From a virus (taxonomy: Duplodnaviria; Heunggongvirae; Uroviricota; Caudoviricetes), in IMG/VR virus record IMGVR_UViG_2579778929_000007: a DNA stretch of 7,121 nt, one strand, 5' to 3'. Position 1 is the stretch's first letter, and each line of letters begins with the position of its first letter. Below the pieces are notes generated by a model, which did no database searches, had not been told where the DNA came from, and worked only from the letters and a program-made list of their open reading frames with translations. This document shows, piece by piece, positions 1 to 7,121 of the stretch. A program made the position numbers and the translations under genes.

Positions 1-306
1 GAAGAACTGACTGACATTCGCGACACACTGAATACGGCAATTGATAAGGAGTTGTCCCGTACAACCAGCGATGCGCTGTTTCTGGCGCTGCGCCGGGTGA
101 AAGCAGATCTGAATGCGGATATCAACACGCGCCTTGAACAGTCTGCACGGATCATTCAGCGCACACCGGATGAGGTTTTACCCGCGCTGGTGCTGGCGGC
201 GACCTGGTTTGATAACGCGACGCGTGACGCGGACATTATCCGGCGTAATGCCATTACGCATCCCGGCTTTGTGCCGGTGATCCCTCTGAAGGTGCCAGTG
301 CAATGA
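1..306 (+). CDS. C-terminal fragment of the tail-module protein that precedes the baseplate hub (the position occupied by the Mu gpN/gp43-type DNA circularisation protein); 5' end lies outside the window
   Basis: Frame 1 is open from base 1 (the ORF track starts it at an internal TTG at 52) and runs to TGA at 304-306. That stop overlaps the ATG of the next gene (ATGA at 303-306), indicating coupling to the hub gene. Product assigned by synteny only. Confidence 0.5.
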   Translation, partial: EELTDIRDTLNTAIDKELSRTTSDALFLALRRVKADLNADINTRLEQSARIIQRTPDEVLPALVLAATWFDNATRDADIIRRNAITHPGFVPVIPLKVPVQ

Positions 307-1382
307 ACGACAATGTCACGCTACGGGTAAATGGCCGGGAGTGGAATGGCTGGACATCGGTGCGCATCGGTGCCGGTATTGAACGGCTGGCGCGGGATTT
401 CAGTGTGGAGATCACCCGCCAGTGGCCGGGAGATGAGGGTATCACCACGCTTCAGCCGCGCATTAAAAACGGTTCAAAAGTGGAAGTGCTGATTGGTGAT
501 GAGCTGGTGATCACCGGCTGGGTGGAGGCGACTCCCGTTCGTTACGATGCCCGTTCGGTCAGCACCGGTATTGCCGGACGTAGTCTGACCGCTGACCTGA
601 TTGACTGTGCAGCCGAACCGACACAGTTTAACGGACGATCGCTGGTACAGATTGCGCAGGCGCTTGCTGCGCCTTTCGGCATTGAGGTGGTGAACAGCGG
701 TGCGCCGTCGGGTGTTATTCCTGATGTCCAGCCTGATCACGGTGAAACGGTGATTGAGGTAATCAACAAAATACTCGGTCAGCAGCAGGCACTGGCTTAC
801 GACGATCCGCACGGCAGGCTGGTGATTGGCGGTATTGGCTCAACGCGGGCACATACCGCGCTGGTACTTGGGGAAAACATCCTTTCCTGTGATACGGAGA
901 AGAGTATCCGGGAGCGGTTTTCTGTTTACCAGGTGGCGGGGCAGCGTGCCGGAAACGACGATGATTTCGGTGAGGCCACCACCACCGCGCTGCGGGCCCG
1001 CACAGAGGACGCATTTATTGCCCGTTACCGTCCGATGTATATCAGGCAGACAGGGCAGGCTACGGGGGCAGGCTGTATTGCGCGTGCTGACTTTGAAGCC
1101 CGGCAACGGGCGGCGCGGACGGATGAAACCACCTATGTGGTGCAGGGCTGGCGACAGGGTAACGGTACGCTGTGGCAACCCAACCAGCGGGTGATTGTCT
1201 TTGATCCGGTCTGTGGTTTTGACAATACCGAACTGCTTGTTTCGGAAGTCACGTTTACTCAGGACCAGAACGGCACCCTGACGGAAATCCGTGTCGGCCC
1301 GCCTGATGCTTATCTGCCTGAACCTGAAGACCCCGGCGCGCGGAAAAAGAAAAAAGCCAGAGTACAGGAGGCCCCGTTCTGA
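303..1382 (+). CDS. Baseplate hub protein, Mu gpP/gp44-like (P2 gpD late-control-D family)
   Basis: 359-aa ORF in the co-directional tail string, high GC, start overlaps the upstream stop. Size and position match the hub protein of Mu-type baseplates. Ends in a lysine-rich tail (ARKKKKARVQEAPF). Family call is from recall and synteny, not a search. Confidence 0.7.
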   Translation: MNDNVTLRVNGREWNGWTSVRIGAGIERLARDFSVEITRQWPGDEGITTLQPRIKNGSKVEVLIGDELVITGWVEATPVRYDARSVSTGIAGRSLTADLIDCAAEPTQFNGRSLVQIAQALAAPFGIEVVNSGAPSGVIPDVQPDHGETVIEVINKILGQQQALAYDDPHGRLVIGGIGSTRAHTALVLGENILSCDTEKSIRERFSVYQVAGQRAGNDDDFGEATTTALRARTEDAFIARYRPMYIRQTGQATGAGCIARADFEARQRAARTDETTYVVQGWRQGNGTLWQPNQRVIVFDPVCGFDNTELLVSEVTFTQDQNGTLTEIRVGPPDAYLPEPEDPGARKKKKARVQEAPF

Positions 1383-1930
1383 TGAGGACGATTGAAGCCA
1401 TGCAGCGACAACTTCTCGGCCTGATTGGGCGGGCAGTGGTGAAAAGCATCAGTGCCGCCACGAAATGTCAGACCGTGGATGTGTCCCTGATTGCCGGTGA
1501 ACCCAAAGCCGGGGTTGAACATCTTGAACCCTACGGTTTTACCGCAAGGGCAAACAGCGGTGCGGAAGCGGTGGTGTTGTTTCCGGATGGCGACCGTTCT
1601 CATGCGGTGGTTGTTACGGTGTCGGACCGGCGCTACCGCCTGAAAGGGCTGCATACGGGGGAGGTGGCTGTCTATGACGATCAGGGGCAGTCCGTGACGC
1701 TGACCCGGGAGGGGATCGTGGTGGACGGTGCAGGTAAAACGATCACGTTTCGCAATGCGCCTAAGGCTCGTTTTGAAATGGACCTGGAAGTGACCGGACA
1801 GGTGAAAGACCTGTGCGACTCCACCGGCACCACCATGTCAGCGATGCGGCTTGCCTATAACGGGCATCGTCACAGAGAGAACGGTCAGGGCAGTAACACC
1901 GACAAACCTGATAAAGCGATGGAGGCATGA
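1382..1930 (+). CDS. Baseplate spike/assembly protein, Mu gp45-like (P2 gpV family)
   Basis: 182-aa ORF. ATG at 1382 overlaps the hub stop (TGATG at 1380-1384). GGAGG at 1367-1371 upstream. Size and position are typical of gpV-like spike proteins following the hub. Confidence 0.65.
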   Translation: MRTIEAMQRQLLGLIGRAVVKSISAATKCQTVDVSLIAGEPKAGVEHLEPYGFTARANSGAEAVVLFPDGDRSHAVVVTVSDRRYRLKGLHTGEVAVYDDQGQSVTLTREGIVVDGAGKTITFRNAPKARFEMDLEVTGQVKDLCDSTGTTMSAMRLAYNGHRHRENGQGSNTDKPDKAMEA

Positions 1931-2355
1931 TGGAACTGTGGCTGACGGTGAACGGTAAACGCACCTGCGCCAGCGCACCGCTGGATCCGCTGACCCGTGC
2001 CGTGGTGATTTCCCTGTTCACCTGGCGGCGGGCTGAACCTGATGACAATGCCGACGTCCCGATGGGATGGTGGGGGGATACCTGGCCTGCGGTACAGAAT
2101 GACCGTTACGGCTCCCGACTGTGGCTGCTTCAGCGCAGCAAACTGACCAATCAGCTGGTGCAGACGGTAAGGGGATATATCCGCGAATGCCTGCAATGGA
2201 TGATTGATGACGGCGTAGTGTCCCGTATTGATCTGGATATCCGCCGCACCGGGATTAATGAGCTGGGTAACAGTATCACCCTCTGGCGTCGTGACGGACC
2301 GGTAATGATTTCTTTTGATGATCTGTGGAGTGCGATAACGCATGGCGGACAGTGA
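1927..2355 (+). CDS. Baseplate protein, Mu gp46-like (GP46 family)
   Basis: 142-aa ORF. Overlaps the previous stop (ATGATG at 1927-1932). GGAGG at 1921-1925 suggests the second ATG at 1930 may be the real start. Position between the spike and the baseplate J-like gene. Confidence 0.6.
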   Translation: MMELWLTVNGKRTCASAPLDPLTRAVVISLFTWRRAEPDDNADVPMGWWGDTWPAVQNDRYGSRLWLLQRSKLTNQLVQTVRGYIRECLQWMIDDGVVSRIDLDIRRTGINELGNSITLWRRDGPVMISFDDLWSAITHGGQ

Positions 2356-3400
2356 ATTTCAACGCCCGACGCTGGCAGAAAATATCAGTATGCTCCGTAA
2401 CGATTTATTCGCCAGGCTGGACGTCAGCGACACGCTCCGGCGCATGGATGAAGACGTGCGGGCAAAGGTGTATGCGGCGGCGCTGCATACGGTTTACGGT
2501 TACATCGATTATCTGGCAATGAACATGCTGCCTGACCTGTGCGATGAGTCCTGGCTGGCGCGACATGCTGCGATGAAACGGTGTCCGCGCAAGGGGGCCA
2601 CGTCTGCCAGCGGGTATATGCGCTGGGAAGGTGTCAGCGATGGCCTGAAGGTGACCGCCGGGAGTGTTATTCAGCGCGATGACCTGGTTCAGTACACGGC
2701 AACTTCTGATGCAACCAGCTCCGGTGGTGTCCTGCGCGTGCCGATCGCCTGCTCAACTGCAGGCGCGGTCGGTAACGCTGACGACGGTACGGCATTAATC
2801 CTGGTCACGCCGGTGAATGGTCTGCCGTCTTCCGGTGTGGCAGATACCCTGACTGGCGGATTCGATACTGAAGATCTGGAAACGTGGCGCGCCCGCGTCA
2901 TTGAGCGGTATTACTGGACGCCGCAGGGCGGGGCTGACGGGGACTATGTCGTCTGGGCTAAAGAAGTGCCCGGCATTACCCGCGCATGGACATACCGTCA
3001 CTGGATGGGAACGGGAACTGTCGGTGTGATGATTGCCAGCAGTGACCTGATTAATCCCATTCCGGAAGAATCAACGGAAACGGCGGCAAGACAACACATT
3101 GAGCCACTGGCCCCGGTGGCAGGCTCTGATTTGTATGTGTTCAGGCCGGTGGCGCATACGGTGGATTTTCATATCCGCGTGACGCCGGACACACCGGAAA
3201 TACGGGCTGCCATTACCGCAGAGTTGCGTTCATTCCTGCTGCGTGATGGTTATCCGCAGGGAGAGCTGAAGGTATCGCGTATCAGTGAAGCGATTTCCGG
3301 TGCGAACGGGGAATACAGCCATCAGTTGCTTGCTCCGGCGGACAATATCTCCATTGCAAAAAATGAACTGGCGGTTCTGGGGACGATTTCATGGACGTGA
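2342..3400 (+). CDS. Baseplate J-like protein, Mu gp47-like (P2 gpJ family; JayE-like)
   Basis: 352-aa ORF overlapping the upstream gene by 14 nt, with GGAG about 11 nt upstream. Size and position are those of the baseplate wedge J-like protein. Confidence 0.7.
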
Positions 3401-3975
3401 CAAACGATGATTACATCCGTCTGTTGTCGGCACTGCTGCCGCCCGGTCCGGCGTGGTCAGCCAGCGATCCGGCGATTGCCGGTGTGGCACCGTCATTAAC
3501 CCGCGTTCATCAGCGTGCGGATGCCCTGATGCGGGAGCTGGATCCGTGCACCACCACTGAACTGATAAACCGCTGGGAGCGTCTGTGCGGTCTGCCGGAT
3601 GAATGTATTCCCGCAGGGACACAGACCCTTCGCCAGCGTCAGCAACGGCTGGATGCGAAGGTTAACCTGGCGGGCGGCATCAACGAGAATTTTTATCTTG
3701 CACAGCTTGCTGCCCTGGGCAGACCAGATGCCACCATCACGCGATACGACAAAAGCACGTTCACCTGCTCATCGGCCTGTACTGACGCTGTGAACGCGCC
3801 TGAATGGCGGTATTACTGGCAGGTCAACATGCCAGCCGCCACCAACACCACCTGGATGACATGTGGCGATCCCTGTGATTCCGCACTGCGTATCTGGGGC
3901 GACACAGTTGTCGAATGTGTGCTTAACAAACTCTGCCCGTCGCATACCTACGTAATTTTTAAATATCCGGAGTAA
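3391..3975 (+). CDS. Tail protein, Mu gp48-like (DUF2313; P2 gpI analogue; YmfQ-like)
   Basis: 194-aa cysteine-containing ORF overlapping the upstream gene by 10 nt. It sits immediately before the tail-fibre gene, as in Mu and e14-type modules. Confidence 0.65.
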
Positions 3976-3978
3976 TCC

Positions 3979-4281
3979 ATGCATCGTATAGACACGAAAA
4001 CCGCGCAGAAGGATAAGTTCGGCGCGGGTAAGAACGGTTTTACCCGTGGTAACCCCCAGACCGGCACGCCTGCCACCGATCTGGATGATGACTACTTTGA
4101 CATGTTGCAGGAGGAGCTTTGCAGCGTTGTGGAGGCCTCCGGTGCCAGCCTGGAGAAGGGGCGGCATGACCAGCTGCTTACCGCGCTTCGTGCGCTGCTG
4201 TTAAGCCGCAAGAATCCGTTTGGCGATATCAAATCGGATGGCACGGTGAAAACGGCTCTCGAAAACCTTGCTTTAAGATGA
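3979..4281 (+). CDS. stf: Side tail fibre, constant N-terminal (baseplate-attachment) part; in this orientation terminated at TGA four codons after the crossover dinucleotide, giving a 100-aa product
   Basis: ATG at 3979 with GGAG at 3969-3972 (6-nt spacing). The reading frame runs through the candidate crossover site and stops at 4279-4281 (…TALENLALR*). Inversion would replace the last three codons with the glycine-rich tip in frame (see findings). Confidence 0.75.
4256..4281. other. Candidate invertase crossover site 1 (hix/gix/pix-like, 26 bp), central dinucleotide TT at 4268-4269
   Basis: CTCTCGAAAACC-TT-GCTTTAAGATGA. The AAAACC..GxTTTA arrangement around a 2-bp core resembles known Hin/Gin-family sites. 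It lies exactly at the end of the fibre constant region. Confidence 0.6.
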
Positions 4282-4370
4282 GAGTAGTAAACCCCTGTCC
4301 CGACGCCATGATACTATCGACTCATGACTCCTGAGTGTGTACCATTAACACAAAAAAATTGAGGTACATA

Positions 4371-5453
4371 ATGAAAAAAGTATTGATAGTTAGCTTGGTG
4401 GGCATCGGAGATCACTTATTATCACGAGTATTCATGAAATCACTCCGCGATGATGAAAAATATAAGCACGCTAAATTCACCTTGCTTGGCAACACTGCAT
4501 TCAAAGATTTTTCTCTCAAGTTTGATATGAATATATTTAATCATTTCATTTGGGTTGATTGTAATAAGGTTACTCCTTATGTGCAAACCAAAGAGAGCAC
4601 ATATACTAAGATTAAAAATAAAGCCATCAGGTTTTACATCAGAAATTTAATTAAGCACTCAAATTTCGATGAGATTATAGTTCCAGATTGGTGGGGTGCG
4701 TCAACTACTTTGCGTGTTACTCCATTTATCTCTAGTGTGAGGGATAGAGCCATCATCAATGGTATGAATATACCTGACCATCAAAGGGAGTTTTTTGGCT
4801 ATTCCACAAAGCCGGATATTGATTTTTCAAAGCATGTCCTGGATATGAATAAAGAGTTTTTCTCTGAGATTATACCATTTCCTAAATTCGAAGTTGAAAT
4901 TCCACTAAAAAATAAAAATAAAGACAGTGGCAAGATTGATATTTGCATTTCACTGGGAGCCTCTGCGCCTTTTAAAAAATACCCTGTATTACAATTAGCA
5001 AATGTAATAAACAGCATATCATCTTCATACAATGCCAATTTTAAAATCATTGGCTCCAATGATGAAATTTCAGATTACAATGTTCTTATTGAGCATATCG
5101 ATAACAAGGATATTGTAGCAGGTTTTGTTGGAAGGACTACATTATCTGAGTCGTGCGATATTGTTCTTTCATCTGAACTTTTGATTGCAAACGACACAGG
5201 CATGTTCCATGTTGGTGCTCTGGCAGGGATTAAAACTGTTTGTATTTCGAATGGTACTGGTTTGCATGCATTTGTGCCATACCCTGAGGAATTTTCGAAC
5301 TGTATTACGGTTTTCCCACCAGAGATACAAAACAAGGTAGGCACAAAAGATTTTATAAATGCACATGGCTGGTCTGGCTCAGCAATTCCGATGTCGAATA
5401 TATCACCAGACGATGTTCTTGCGGCTTGTTATAAATTGCTAAATAAAAAATAG
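4371..5453 (+). CDS. GT9-family glycosyltransferase (ADP-heptose:LPS heptosyltransferase-like, GT-B fold); substrate unknown
   Basis: The N-terminus KKVLIVSLVGIGDHLLS resembles the first Rossmann strand and G-x-GD motif of GT9 enzymes. The C-terminal LLIANDTGMFHVGALAGIKTVCISNGTG resembles the conserved GT9 donor-binding segment. GAGG at 4361-4364 is 6 nt before ATG 4371. The ORF track starts it at an in-frame GTG at 4335. Strongly AT-rich, by eye about 30% GC against more than 55% in the flanks. Confidence 0.65.
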   Translation: MKKVLIVSLVGIGDHLLSRVFMKSLRDDEKYKHAKFTLLGNTAFKDFSLKFDMNIFNHFIWVDCNKVTPYVQTKESTYTKIKNKAIRFYIRNLIKHSNFDEIIVPDWWGASTTLRVTPFISSVRDRAIINGMNIPDHQREFFGYSTKPDIDFSKHVLDMNKEFFSEIIPFPKFEVEIPLKNKNKDSGKIDICISLGASAPFKKYPVLQLANVINSISSSYNANFKIIGSNDEISDYNVLIEHIDNKDIVAGFVGRTTLSESCDIVLSSELLIANDTGMFHVGALAGIKTVCISNGTGLHAFVPYPEEFSNCITVFPPEIQNKVGTKDFINAHGWSGSAIPMSNISPDDVLAACYKLLNKK

Positions 5454-5463
5454 ATGAAGTAAT

Positions 5464-5859
5464 TCAAGCTGGCTTTTCCGGCCAGCTAATCTCTGCATTA
5501 GTGTTAGCGTCAATCCTGCTCAGCAATACCCGGTATTGCTTCCACAATGGCAGCGCTACGGTTTCTGCATCTGTCGCCATACTCAAATCAACAGCATCCT
5601 GTAAAACGCTAATCTGTTGTGTCGCCTCACTCATCAGTGCGTTTTTTGTAGCCAGATTATTGGCTATTTTCTGCTGTTTTGCTGCCTCAAGTTCTTTATT
5701 AGTTGGCGGTGGCGCACTAAAAACATCGTTATCGTAATGCCAGCCGATACCAACACCATCGGTAGAGAGAATGGCACTTGCTGATTCAGGCCACTCTGAC
5801 TCGCCATCCCAGATAACAATATTTTCTACGATACCATTTTTGATAATTGCATAGTTCAT
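5464..5859 (-). CDS. tfa: Tail fibre assembly protein (Tfa chaperone; Mu gpU / e14 TfaE-like)
   Basis: 131-aa ORF. The C-terminus …LSMATDAETVALPLWKQYRVLLSRIDANTNAEISWPEKPA matches the conserved C-terminal motif of Tfa chaperones. Its ATG directly abuts the TAA of the fibre tip ORF (TAAATG on the - strand), with GGAG 9 nt upstream. Confidence 0.8.
   Translation of the reverse strand: MNYAIIKNGIVENIVIWDGESEWPESASAILSTDGVGIGWHYDNDVFSAPPPTNKELEAAKQQKIANNLATKNALMSEATQQISVLQDAVDLSMATDAETVALPLWKQYRVLLSRIDANTNAEISWPEKPA
5467..5487. terminator. Hairpin between the convergent glycosyltransferase and chaperone genes; possible bidirectional terminator
   Basis: AGCTGGC (5467-5473) pairs with GCCAGCT (5481-5487) around a short T-rich loop. 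It lies between the stop at 5451-5453 (+) and the stop at 5464-5466 (-). No clean U-tract on either strand. Confidence 0.3.
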
Positions 5860-6498
5860 TTACGCATACTCCAAAATAATAATCACGCCAGCATTGCCCG
5901 GGTTGCCGTTGACATTCTGCGCCCCACCACTGGTTGCAGCGCCATTACCACCAGCACCATACCCACCAGGGCCAGAAATAAAGCTACCGCCGCCAAGTCC
6001 GGAACCTACAGTCCCTCCGACTGCTGTTGGGGTTGCCATCACACCGGGCAGCCCGGCGTACCCGTTGCACAAAAGGGCACCCACGGTCGAAGTGCCACCC
6101 TGACCGCCCATGCCACATGACGCAGAGGAACCTGACGCGGTGCAGCCGTTGCCTGGCTGGCCTCCACCTGCTGAGAGATAAGAGCCAAAAGTCGTCGTGC
6201 CGCCCTGTGTACCATTGGTTATCGTCGACGCAATACCGCCATTACCACCCGCACCAATCGTGACAAGCACGGTTGATATCGCAGACAGGTTAAAGAGACC
6301 GCGTGCCATTCCACCGCCACCACCACCGCCACCCGCTGCGTTATAGTTTCCTGTGGAAGTTGCCCAGCCGCCGCCCCCACCGCCCCCAATAGCGATGACA
6401 TCCGCGAACATTGCTCCGGGGGTTTTGGTGTAAGTGCCAGACGTCTTGATTATCTGCATGCCAATCAGACGGCCGACTGCGCCGTTATTTACTAAACC
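5860..6498 (-). CDS. stf: Tail fibre C-terminal variable (receptor-binding) cassette, glycine-rich; not fused to the fibre N-terminus in this orientation
   Basis: The - strand frame is open from the crossover core down to TAA at 5860-5862. Translation is rich in poly-Gly runs (…AIGGGGGGGW…AAGGGGGGGGM…). The first 14 codons of the tracked ORF (6499-6540) lie outside the segment and are probably not a genuine start. Directly followed by tfa. Confidence 0.75.
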   Translation of the reverse strand, partial: GLVNNGAVGRLIGMQIIKTSGTYTKTPGAMFADVIAIGGGGGGGWATSTGNYNAAGGGGGGGGMARGLFNLSAISTVLVTIGAGGNGGIASTITNGTQGGTTTFGSYLSAGGGQPGNGCTASGSSASCGMGGQGGTSTVGALLCNGYAGLPGVMATPTAVGGTVGSGLGGGSFISGPGGYGAGGNGAATSGGAQNVNGNPGNAGVIIILEYA

Positions 6499-6512
6499 AA
6501 CGTTTATGAAAA
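6487..6512. other. Candidate invertase crossover site 2 (inverted relative to site 1), central dinucleotide AA at 6499-6500
   Basis: ATTTACTAAACC-AA-CGTTTATGAAAA. Its reverse complement aligns with site 1 at about 15 of 26 positions by hand alignment, concentrated around the core (AAAC.TTG.TTTA). It sits 55 bp upstream of the invertase ATG. Confidence 0.6.
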
Positions 6513-6566
6513 TGCAGAAATAACGAGCAAATGGCATCATTCCTGCTTTTGTCAGGGAGAGCTACC

Positions 6567-7121
6567 ATGCTTATTGGCTATGTATGTGTGTCAACAAATG
6601 ACCAGAACACAGATCTACAACGTAATGCGTTGAACTGTGTAGGATGTGAACTGATTTTTGAAGACAAGATAAGCGGTACGAAGTCCGAAAGGCCCGGACT
6701 GAAAAAACTGCTCAGGACATTATCGGCAGGTGACACTCTGGTTGTCTGGAAGCTGGACAGGTTAGGGCGCAGTATGCGGCATCTTGTTACGCTGATAGAA
6801 GAGTTGCGCCAGCGTGGCGTGAATTTCCGAAGCCTGACTGACAGTATTGATACCAGTACCCCAATGGGCCGTTTCTTTTTTCATGTCATGGGTGCCCTGG
6901 CTGAAATGGAACGAGAACTGATTGTTGAACGAACAAAAGCTGGACTGGAAGCTGCTCGCGCACAGGGACGAATTGGTGGACGTCGTCCCAAACTTACACC
7001 AGAACAATGGGCGCAGGCCGGGCGATTAATTGCATCAGGCGTTCCTCGCCAGAAGGTGGCGATCATCTATGATGTTGGTATATCGACACTGTATAAGAAG
7101 TTTCCGGTCGGAGATAAATGA
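6567..7121 (+). CDS. pin: Site-specific DNA invertase, serine recombinase of the Gin/Pin/Hin/Cin family
   Basis: Translation from ATG 6567 begins MLIGYVCVSTNDQNTDLQRNAL… and contains …VVWKLDRLGRSMRHL… and …SLTDSIDTSTPMGRFFFHVMGALAEMERELIVERT…GRIGGRRPKL…, closely resembling Pin/Gin/Hin invertases as I recall them. GGGAGAG at 6555-6561 is 5 nt before the ATG. The ORF track extends to an upstream ATG at 6531, which I consider less likely. The stop is at the last three bases of the window. Confidence 0.9.
   Translation: MLIGYVCVSTNDQNTDLQRNALNCVGCELIFEDKISGTKSERPGLKKLLRTLSAGDTLVVWKLDRLGRSMRHLVTLIEELRQRGVNFRSLTDSIDTSTPMGRFFFHVMGALAEMERELIVERTKAGLEAARAQGRIGGRRPKLTPEQWAQAGRLIASGVPRQKVAIIYDVGISTLYKKFPVGDK

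Follow-up and report, generated by a model that had tools for sequence, protein, structure and literature searches.

The stretch IMGVR_UViG_2579778929_000007 of IMG/VR, hereafter the window, is 7,121 nucleotides of DNA from a tailed virus (Caudoviricetes) and carries the distal part of a myovirus tail module, with an invertible fibre segment. One half of this segment holds a gene for a glycosyltransferase of the GT9 family, here called GT9. The favoured reading, to which we give a probability of about 0.6, is that GT9 is a horizontally acquired moron at a fibre-distal cargo hotspot, which here lies inside a Din-type invertible segment; the enzyme would have an envelope-glycan role and would be expressed partly by read-through. 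Cargo of this type is already known (neaT, sopE, Z/fun, the glycosyltransferases of tailocins). What is new is a rare GT9 gene captured in an active invertible fibre segment, in which it replaces the second fibre cassette.

The GT9 enzyme and its relatives

The open reading frame (ORF) begins with ATG at position 4371, encodes 360 residues up to position 5453 on the + strand, and has a GAGG Shine-Dalgarno sequence (4361-4364) 6 nt upstream of the start codon. A preliminary description of this DNA, made from the letters alone, recognised a GT9-like protein with the N- and C-terminal motifs of the family, and both profile and structure comparisons agree. The protein matches PF01075 (Glyco_transf_9) with 30.4 bits and E = 3e-7 in a Pfam profile search, above the gathering cut-off of 22 bits, which places it inside a glycosyltransferase family and not outside such families. 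It also matches the GT9 protein 3TOV of the PDB (E = 3.5e-5). The AlphaFold2 (AF2) model, obtained from a 52-sequence alignment (pLDDT 86.1, pTM 0.88), has the predicted GT-B fold of two Rossmann-like domains and is closest to GT9 structures: the matches ranked 1-9 by Foldseek in the PDB are all GT9 enzymes (3TOV, WaaF 1PSW, WaaC), with TM 0.65-0.73.

Members of the family have an N-terminal G-D motif which includes the catalytic Asp, a basic residue before an aromatic residue of the C-terminal domain, and a D-T/S-G-x-x-H sugar-nucleotide motif. These hallmarks are kept in GT9 as I12-G13-D14, K201/K202-Y203 and N274-D275-T276-G277..H280, and they align with the motifs of WaaC and WaaF. An assembly artefact or a chance ORF is out, given that the Pfam score is above threshold and that the identical locus occurs in independent complete genomes: positions 3900-7121 of the window (3.2 kb searched) recur with 100% identity in the chromosomes of E. 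coli TUM14664 and strain 102651. The window also matches an IMG/VR contig of 7133 bases (L010). The assignment to GT9 is firm.

The preliminary description also called the protein heptosyltransferase-like. This holds at the level of the GT9 family, but not for the known heptosyltransferase types. The scores against the NCBIfam equivalogs TIGR02195, TIGR02193 and TIGR02201 are 35.8, 25.5 and 15.1 bits, for cut-offs of 134.6, 185.3 and 170.2 bits, respectively. The protein is so far below all three that an orthologue of WaaC, WaaF or WaaQ (lipopolysaccharide (LPS) heptosyltransferases I, II and III) is rejected, and its closest relatives likewise score below these cut-offs. GT9 shares with WaaC, WaaF and WaaQ the Pfam family, the GT-B fold, the N-terminal G-D and the C-terminal D-T/S-G-x-x-H, but the identity is only 14-18% and the gene lies outside any waa locus. 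An autotransporter heptosyltransferase of the TibC/AAH type is unsupported: a profile of the subfamily searched against the PDB, with E up to 1, gives WaaF, 3TOV, WaaC and PnsB1 only, and TibC is absent from the Foldseek top 50 of the AF2 model.

An exhaustive HMMER search among representatives of about 15 billion proteins retrieved the protein's own 90% cluster and then nothing above about 38% identity. The next-best relatives have 38% identity (partial) or about 30% (full length), and 2294 weaker relatives follow, so no closer homologue outside its own cluster points to a source organism. The nearest relatives, at about 30% identity, belong to environmental bacteria, and those which are named are Ignavibacteria. 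The inspected surroundings of the relatives are polysaccharide-synthesis loci, where their neighbours are GT2 and GT1 glycosyltransferases, pyruvyl transferases and methyltransferases; some relatives carry a GT2 or a pyruvyl-transferase domain by fusion. As judged from these comparisons, GT9 is an intact enzyme of an uncharacterised GT9 subfamily linked to polysaccharide loci. It has no match in PHROGs, and tblastn of the protein against 50,697 phage records and the PLSDB plasmids found none. A known defence protein is rejected in the absence of a PADLOC match.

The GC content of the ORF is 35.6%, compared to 57.5% for bases 1-4269. The earlier figure of about 30%, estimated by eye, was slightly low, but the sharp contrast with the rest of the window from which a foreign origin had been proposed stands. 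The composition of GT9 is thus foreign, which speaks for horizontally acquired cargo.

The invertible segment and its cassettes

When the junctions of natural copies in both orientations are aligned, the exchange of flanks falls exactly on the central dinucleotide (TT/AA) of the crossover sites, as expected from a Hin/Gin-type crossover. Related loci carry AAACCTTGGTTT at the left site. When the segment is inverted in silico between the two cores, it yields an intact 309-aa fibre with the tail fibre assembly chaperone gene (tfa) directly behind, hereafter the fibre-ON orientation, and GT9 becomes divergent from the invertase gene, with 170 bp between both starts. In the orientation of the window, hereafter GT9-forward, the fibre gene is a stub of 97 constant codons followed by Ala-Leu-Arg and a stop inside the left crossover site, and it ends 89 nt before the GT9 start. 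The geometry foreseen for each orientation, the stub and then GT9 with its Shine-Dalgarno sequence before inversion and the divergence from the invertase after it, is borne out by the natural inverted copies.

Indeed, three further complete E. coli genomes have the segment, with 97.8-100% identity, in their P2-like prophages, where the tip is fused into a gpH-type fibre of 562 aa and GT9 and the invertase gene diverge. The GT9-forward state of the same P2-like prophage, with a 353-aa fibre stub, is found in a metagenome scaffold and in further genomes. Among 24 contigs that were read, about 16 are fibre-ON (the P2-like loci L002, L007, L008, L011, L013 and others) and about 8 are GT9-forward (among the P2-like loci, L003, L014 and L022). 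The copies in a Mu-like context (window, TUM14664, strain 102651) are GT9-forward in three cases out of three. From the natural copies, the segment with GT9 evidently inverts in nature. The constant fibre parts of the Mu-like and P2-like types are unrelated and identity begins at the core, and the 2.2-kb segment has therefore probably moved between unrelated tail modules via recombination at the crossover sites.

The content of the segment was compared with that of 65 viral contigs which have an invertase at least 87% identical to that of the window and enough upstream DNA. About 53 of them are canonical, with a fibre tip, tfa, and then tfa and a tip on the other strand; a few are without one tfa. 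GT9 occurs in the window's own contig only, and the other 64 are without it. These counts uphold the claim that GT9 fills the half which normally holds the second tip and chaperone, one cassette being left here. The former tip is reduced to about 9 nt, which are the inner half-site (GGTTTAAGA, encoding G-L-R, in relatives; GCTTTAAGA here), and the fibre frame of canonical relatives continues GLRASGQ... where the window has TGA GAG TAG TAA. By these alignments, GT9 has replaced the second fibre tip and chaperone cassette.

In P2-like phages, the gap between the chaperone gene G and the sheath gene FI is known as "moron position 2" (PMC3573123), and the slot of GT9 equals this position. The deviant composition, the patchy presence and the known hotspot fit, at the level of sequence, a phage moron. 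In invertase-bearing phages the cargo hotspot would fall inside the Din-type invertible segment, and it is for this reason that GT9 would have replaced the second tip and chaperone.

The arrangement can be compared with those of known systems. The Mu G, P1 C and e14 P segments of the Din family (invertases Gin, Cin and Pin) also have a serine invertase beside the segment, 26-bp inverted sites with a 2-bp core, a constant fibre part outside and a tip and chaperone inside, and both orientations are natural. Unlike in these segments, there is here a single tip/chaperone cassette, the other half being a non-fibre enzyme gene, and one orientation yields a fibre stub (100 aa in the window, 353 aa in the P2-like copies). 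At the Z/fun hotspot, invertases occur mixed with receptor-binding modules and further cargo (bioRxiv 10.1101/2024.10.15.618418). The neaT gene of phi-b0847 (E. coli CFT073) is likewise rare, low-GC cargo of the envelope-enzyme type, which lies at moron position 2 after the fibre chaperone gene and is transcribed opposite to the tail genes, a geometry equal to that of GT9 in the fibre-ON P2-like copies; it differs from GT9 in that it encodes an acyltransferase and in that neither active crossover sites around it nor the displacement of a fibre cassette are described (PMC3573123). In SopEPhi, a P2-like phage of Salmonella, the sopE cargo lies between the fibre genes H/G and the DNA-invertase gene and is encoded on the opposite strand, but the invertase is only a fragment, so that the arrangement is fixed, and sopE encodes a type III effector. 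The P2-like tailocin of Xenorhabdus, xenorhabdicin, has a hypervariable fibre region with glycosyltransferases among its invertible fibre cassettes, for which LPS modification for self-resistance has been put forward, there too as a proposal (bioRxiv 10.1101/2025.04.19.648921). The Xenorhabdus loci differ by their annotated glycosyltransferase and mannosyltransferase types, by having no adjacent invertase and by belonging to a tailocin and not to a prophage.

GT9 is present in 5 of 5426 complete E. coli genomes, and E. coli DNA of the tip and tfa is found only with GT9 (5/5426 as well). The exact protein is listed in 442 blocks of a public assembly collection. In the aligned P2-like loci, no more than one base of GT9 and tfa deviates from the window, the single GT9 change being in the metagenome scaffold (L003). 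Chaperone relatives at 55-60% identity (those named are from Rahnella, Pantoea and Erwinia) pair with Gly-rich tips, and there is no glycosyltransferase or invertase nearby in the inspected contigs. A role of GT9 as a regular partner of the Gly-rich tip/Tfa module is thus out, the relatives in Rahnella, Pantoea and P2-like contigs having no glycosyltransferase.

Expression and possible role

The mechanism that we infer is the following. The unit formed by inner half-site, GT9, tfa, Gly-rich tip and inner half-site inverts by serine-invertase crossover at the 2-bp cores, and it has probably been swapped between P2-like prophages and a Mu-like/e14-like tail remnant, that of the window. In the fibre-ON orientation, the full fibre and its chaperone would be made, while GT9 points away from the invertase and runs antisense to the late transcripts. 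In the GT9-forward orientation, the fibre is a stub, and the next gene in the tail operon is GT9 with its own ribosome-binding site. A host envelope glycan is the most likely acceptor of the sugar, be it the LPS core or a different surface polysaccharide, and its modification would alter phage adsorption or host interactions like other envelope-modifying morons at the hotspot. Tail-operon read-through may be needed for GT9, at least in part, and this would couple its expression to orientation. In the serotype conversion by GtrABC or Oac, a prophage enzyme similarly alters a surface glycan used as phage receptor, as may be the case for GT9, but here there is no GtrA/GtrB, GT-C protein or acyltransferase. 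Serotype-conversion genes of this kind adjoin the attachment site and not a fibre segment.

The expression signals were searched by consensus scans. No convincing sigma-70 promoter was found upstream of GT9 in either orientation, whether in the leader of 89 nt or in the 170 bp between the divergent genes: the sole sigma-70-like match is TTAACA (4345-4350) with CATAAT (4367-4372), whose -10 element overlaps the GT9 ATG. No terminator is predicted between the fibre stub and GT9, the fold of the leader (4282-4370) is not significant and no Rfam family is matched. These scans would fit read-through from the tail operon when the segment is GT9-forward, and orientation-dependent expression is plausible on this basis. 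An 8-bp GC-rich hairpin (GCUGGCUU / GGCCAGC, 5467-5487) lies just past the GT9 stop, where it overlaps the final codons of the convergent tfa; the + strand shows no U-tract there, and the fold energy is not significant relative to shuffled sequences (z = -1.76).

Several points weigh against the reading of GT9 as an envelope-modifying moron which depends on read-through. The E156 and F157 positions, conserved in the family, are not kept. With 0-1 nt differences among copies, purifying selection is not measurable. Consensus promoter scans are weak evidence, and morons at position 2 usually carry their own regulatory elements (PMC3573123). Finally, there is no obvious benefit in a late-expressed glycosyltransferase in a cell that makes fibre-less virions.

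The slot is a known P2 cargo hotspot, and an ordinary, self-regulated moron is therefore a strong alternative to invertase-controlled expression: in P2-like phages the gap between the chaperone and the next tail gene is known for such cargo (neaT, Z/fun, sopE).

GT9 could also be one side of a bistable switch, on only in the GT9-forward state via tail-operon read-through and silent in fibre-ON, so that the population would alternate between virion-competent and surface-remodelling cells. The lack of a convincing promoter and of a terminator fits this view, as do the triple in-frame stop followed by a good Shine-Dalgarno sequence, which suggests a tidy operon junction, and the fact that both orientations are common in nature. 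In e14, moreover, segment genes are reported active in uninduced cells after Pin-mediated inversion, which is also reported to change the phage sensitivity of the host (PMC12529663). Tail operons, however, are late and repressed in lysogens, a state of fibre-less virions is costly and hotspot cargo is normally self-regulated, which makes such a switch unlikely, if worth keeping in mind.

A bolder version has the fibre invertase co-opted as a phase-variation switch for host surface glycosylation, with infectious virions in one orientation versus a silent fibre and GT9 under tail-operon transcription in the other. Clonal lysogens would then exist in two states of envelope glycan and phage output, GT9 might hide the receptor to which its own linked tip binds, and in tail-only remnants with a dead invertase, such as that of the window, the host would have fixed the glycosyltransferase state. 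This version is speculative and rather doubtful.

It is quite improbable that GT9 is an inert hitchhiker, a recent accidental insertion which destroyed the alternative cassette and stays silent (as H-NS-repressed AT-rich DNA, for example), kept by linkage to a useful tip. The near-zero divergence among copies gives no sign of selection, no promoter was found, the gene is rare in E. coli and the window copy lies in a decaying remnant. On the contrary, the ORF is intact and the catalytic motifs are kept in every copy, the exact protein recurs in the assembly blocks, and GT9 has survived both a move to a second tail module, unrelated to the first, and the loss of the invertase (in NH-21 and L018, described below).

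The GT9 family includes protein heptosyltransferases (TibC/AAH), a point in favour of glycosylation of the fibre, of another tail protein or of a host surface protein in the style of autotransporter heptosyltransferases. This is very unlikely: GT9 can lie in the late tail operon and is always linked in E. coli to one Gly/Ser/Thr-rich fibre tip, but it is convergent with the linked tip and chaperone and never co-transcribed with them from the late promoter, the subfamily profile finds no TibC in the PDB while Foldseek puts LPS enzymes first, the relatives are in polysaccharide loci and Tfa/Gly-rich modules elsewhere have no glycosyltransferase.

If GT9 is active on LPS or another surface glycan, the segment would be a serine-invertase switch which sets phage infectivity against remodelling of the host surface. 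Two well-studied phenomena, host-range switching by fibres and lysogenic conversion, would be joined in one mobile 2.2-kb module across unrelated tail types, and GT9 would join the phage-borne envelope modifiers as an enzyme for which neither PHROGs nor the searched phage deposits gave a match. Such modifiers bear on the prediction of host range in phage therapy and on LPS core typing. If GT9 is only a self-regulated moron, it would be one more rare cargo gene at a known hotspot.

The window copy and variant loci

The features of the window are collected in Table 1. The tail operon (303-3975, + strand) reads towards the fibre gene.

Table 1. Features of the window, with their positions and the basis of each assignment
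Feature	Position	Strand or detail	Basis
gp44/P-like baseplate gene, Mu-like	303-1382	+	Pfam matches; RefSeq annotation of identical locus
gp45 baseplate gene, Mu-like	1382-1930	+	Pfam; RefSeq annotation of identical locus
gp46 baseplate gene, Mu-like	1927-2355	+	Pfam; RefSeq annotation of identical locus
gp47/J baseplate gene, Mu-like	2342-3400	+	Pfam; RefSeq annotation of identical locus
gp48/YmfQ baseplate gene, Mu-like	3391-3975	+	Pfam; RefSeq annotation of identical locus
Truncated fibre gene, StfP-type, 100 aa	3979-4281	+	RefSeq: stfP, "missing C-terminus"
Left crossover site CTCTCGAAAACC-TT-GCTTTAAGATGA	4256-4281	core TT 4268-4269	Junction comparison of copies in two orientations
Invertible segment core to core, 2233 bp: GT9, tfa, Gly-rich tip	4268-6500		Junctions, natural copies, in-silico inversion
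Triple in-frame stop TGA GAG TAG TAA	4279-4290	+	Read from sequence, fibre frame, directly after inner half-site
GT9 leader, 89 nt	4282-4370	+	GAGG 4361-4364
GT9-family glycosyltransferase, 360 aa, WP_032277884.1	4371-5453	+	Pfam, NCBIfam, AF2/Foldseek, motifs
Tail fibre assembly chaperone tfa (Caudo_TAP), 131 aa	5464-5859	-	Pfam; convergent with GT9
Variable fibre tip, Gly_rich_2 domain, 213 codons	5860-6498	-	Pfam; joins constant part only upon inversion
Right crossover site ATTTACTAAACC-AA-CGTTTATGAAAA	6487-6512	core AA 6499-6500	Orientation junctions, related loci
Pin/Gin-type serine invertase, 184 aa	6567-7121	+	Pfam Resolvase 168.7 bits + HTH_7

Residue 7 of the window's invertase is Cys (TGT, codon 6585-6587, in GYVCVST), whereas 78 of 79 relatives have Arg (GYVRVST); this Arg is the counterpart of the catalytic R8 in gamma-delta and Tn3 resolvases. 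TUM14664 and strain 102651 have R7C as well. In TUM14664 the GT9 element is reduced to a tail-only remnant, which IS1 interrupts immediately before the head-closure gene. Because of the change at the catalytic Arg and of the tail-only remnant, the invertase of the window is probably inactive and the copy locked, with its GT9-forward state fixed. Pin-family invertases cross-complement, and others in the cell could act in trans (PMC12529663).

In this strain (L001 1-1726, L012 1-2221), nothing of the element is left ahead of the head-closure gene, where IS1 and unrelated genes are found instead, and a frameshift affects one gene of the tail region of TUM14664.

Variants of the locus were seen in two P2-like copies. 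In E. coli NH-21 (L008 1746-2908), an element of the IS3 family stands in place of the invertase and the segment is left fibre-ON. Between its fibre tip and that of the window there are 44 nucleotide differences (13 aa), compared with none in GT9 and a single silent one in tfa, which indicates recombination within the fibre tip of this copy. GCA_043523665.1 (L018 2185-3859) has a scrambled P2-like variant in which a truncated invertase is fused into a fragment of another fibre tip; upstream, GT9 is preceded by an additional tfa and by an ORF of 140 aa that matches nothing in Pfam.

Other genes occupy comparable places elsewhere. About 25 kb from its GT9 element, TUM14664 has a second, related prophage with a Mu-like tail (L012 11049-13607), in which a gene for a ClpP-like protease and a tfa fragment are found where the alternative cassette would be. 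This gene is out as a parallel case, the N-terminus of the invertase and the invertase-side crossover site being deleted and the segment not intact. In IMGVR_UViG_2531839532_000012 (L080 4803-5908), an AT-rich Acyl_transf_3 gene (31% GC) is convergent with a Gly_rich_2 tip and a truncated tfa in a Pin-linked segment. The Acyl_transf_3 gene has the same geometry in E. coli KSC1031 (L108 3501-4520), and 7 of the 5426 E. coli genomes carry it. It holds a (GACAGTC)n heptanucleotide repeat, and the L080 copy is 56 nt longer than the intact copies of the seven genomes, its frame being split in two at the repeat tract, which looks like slipped-strand phase variation.

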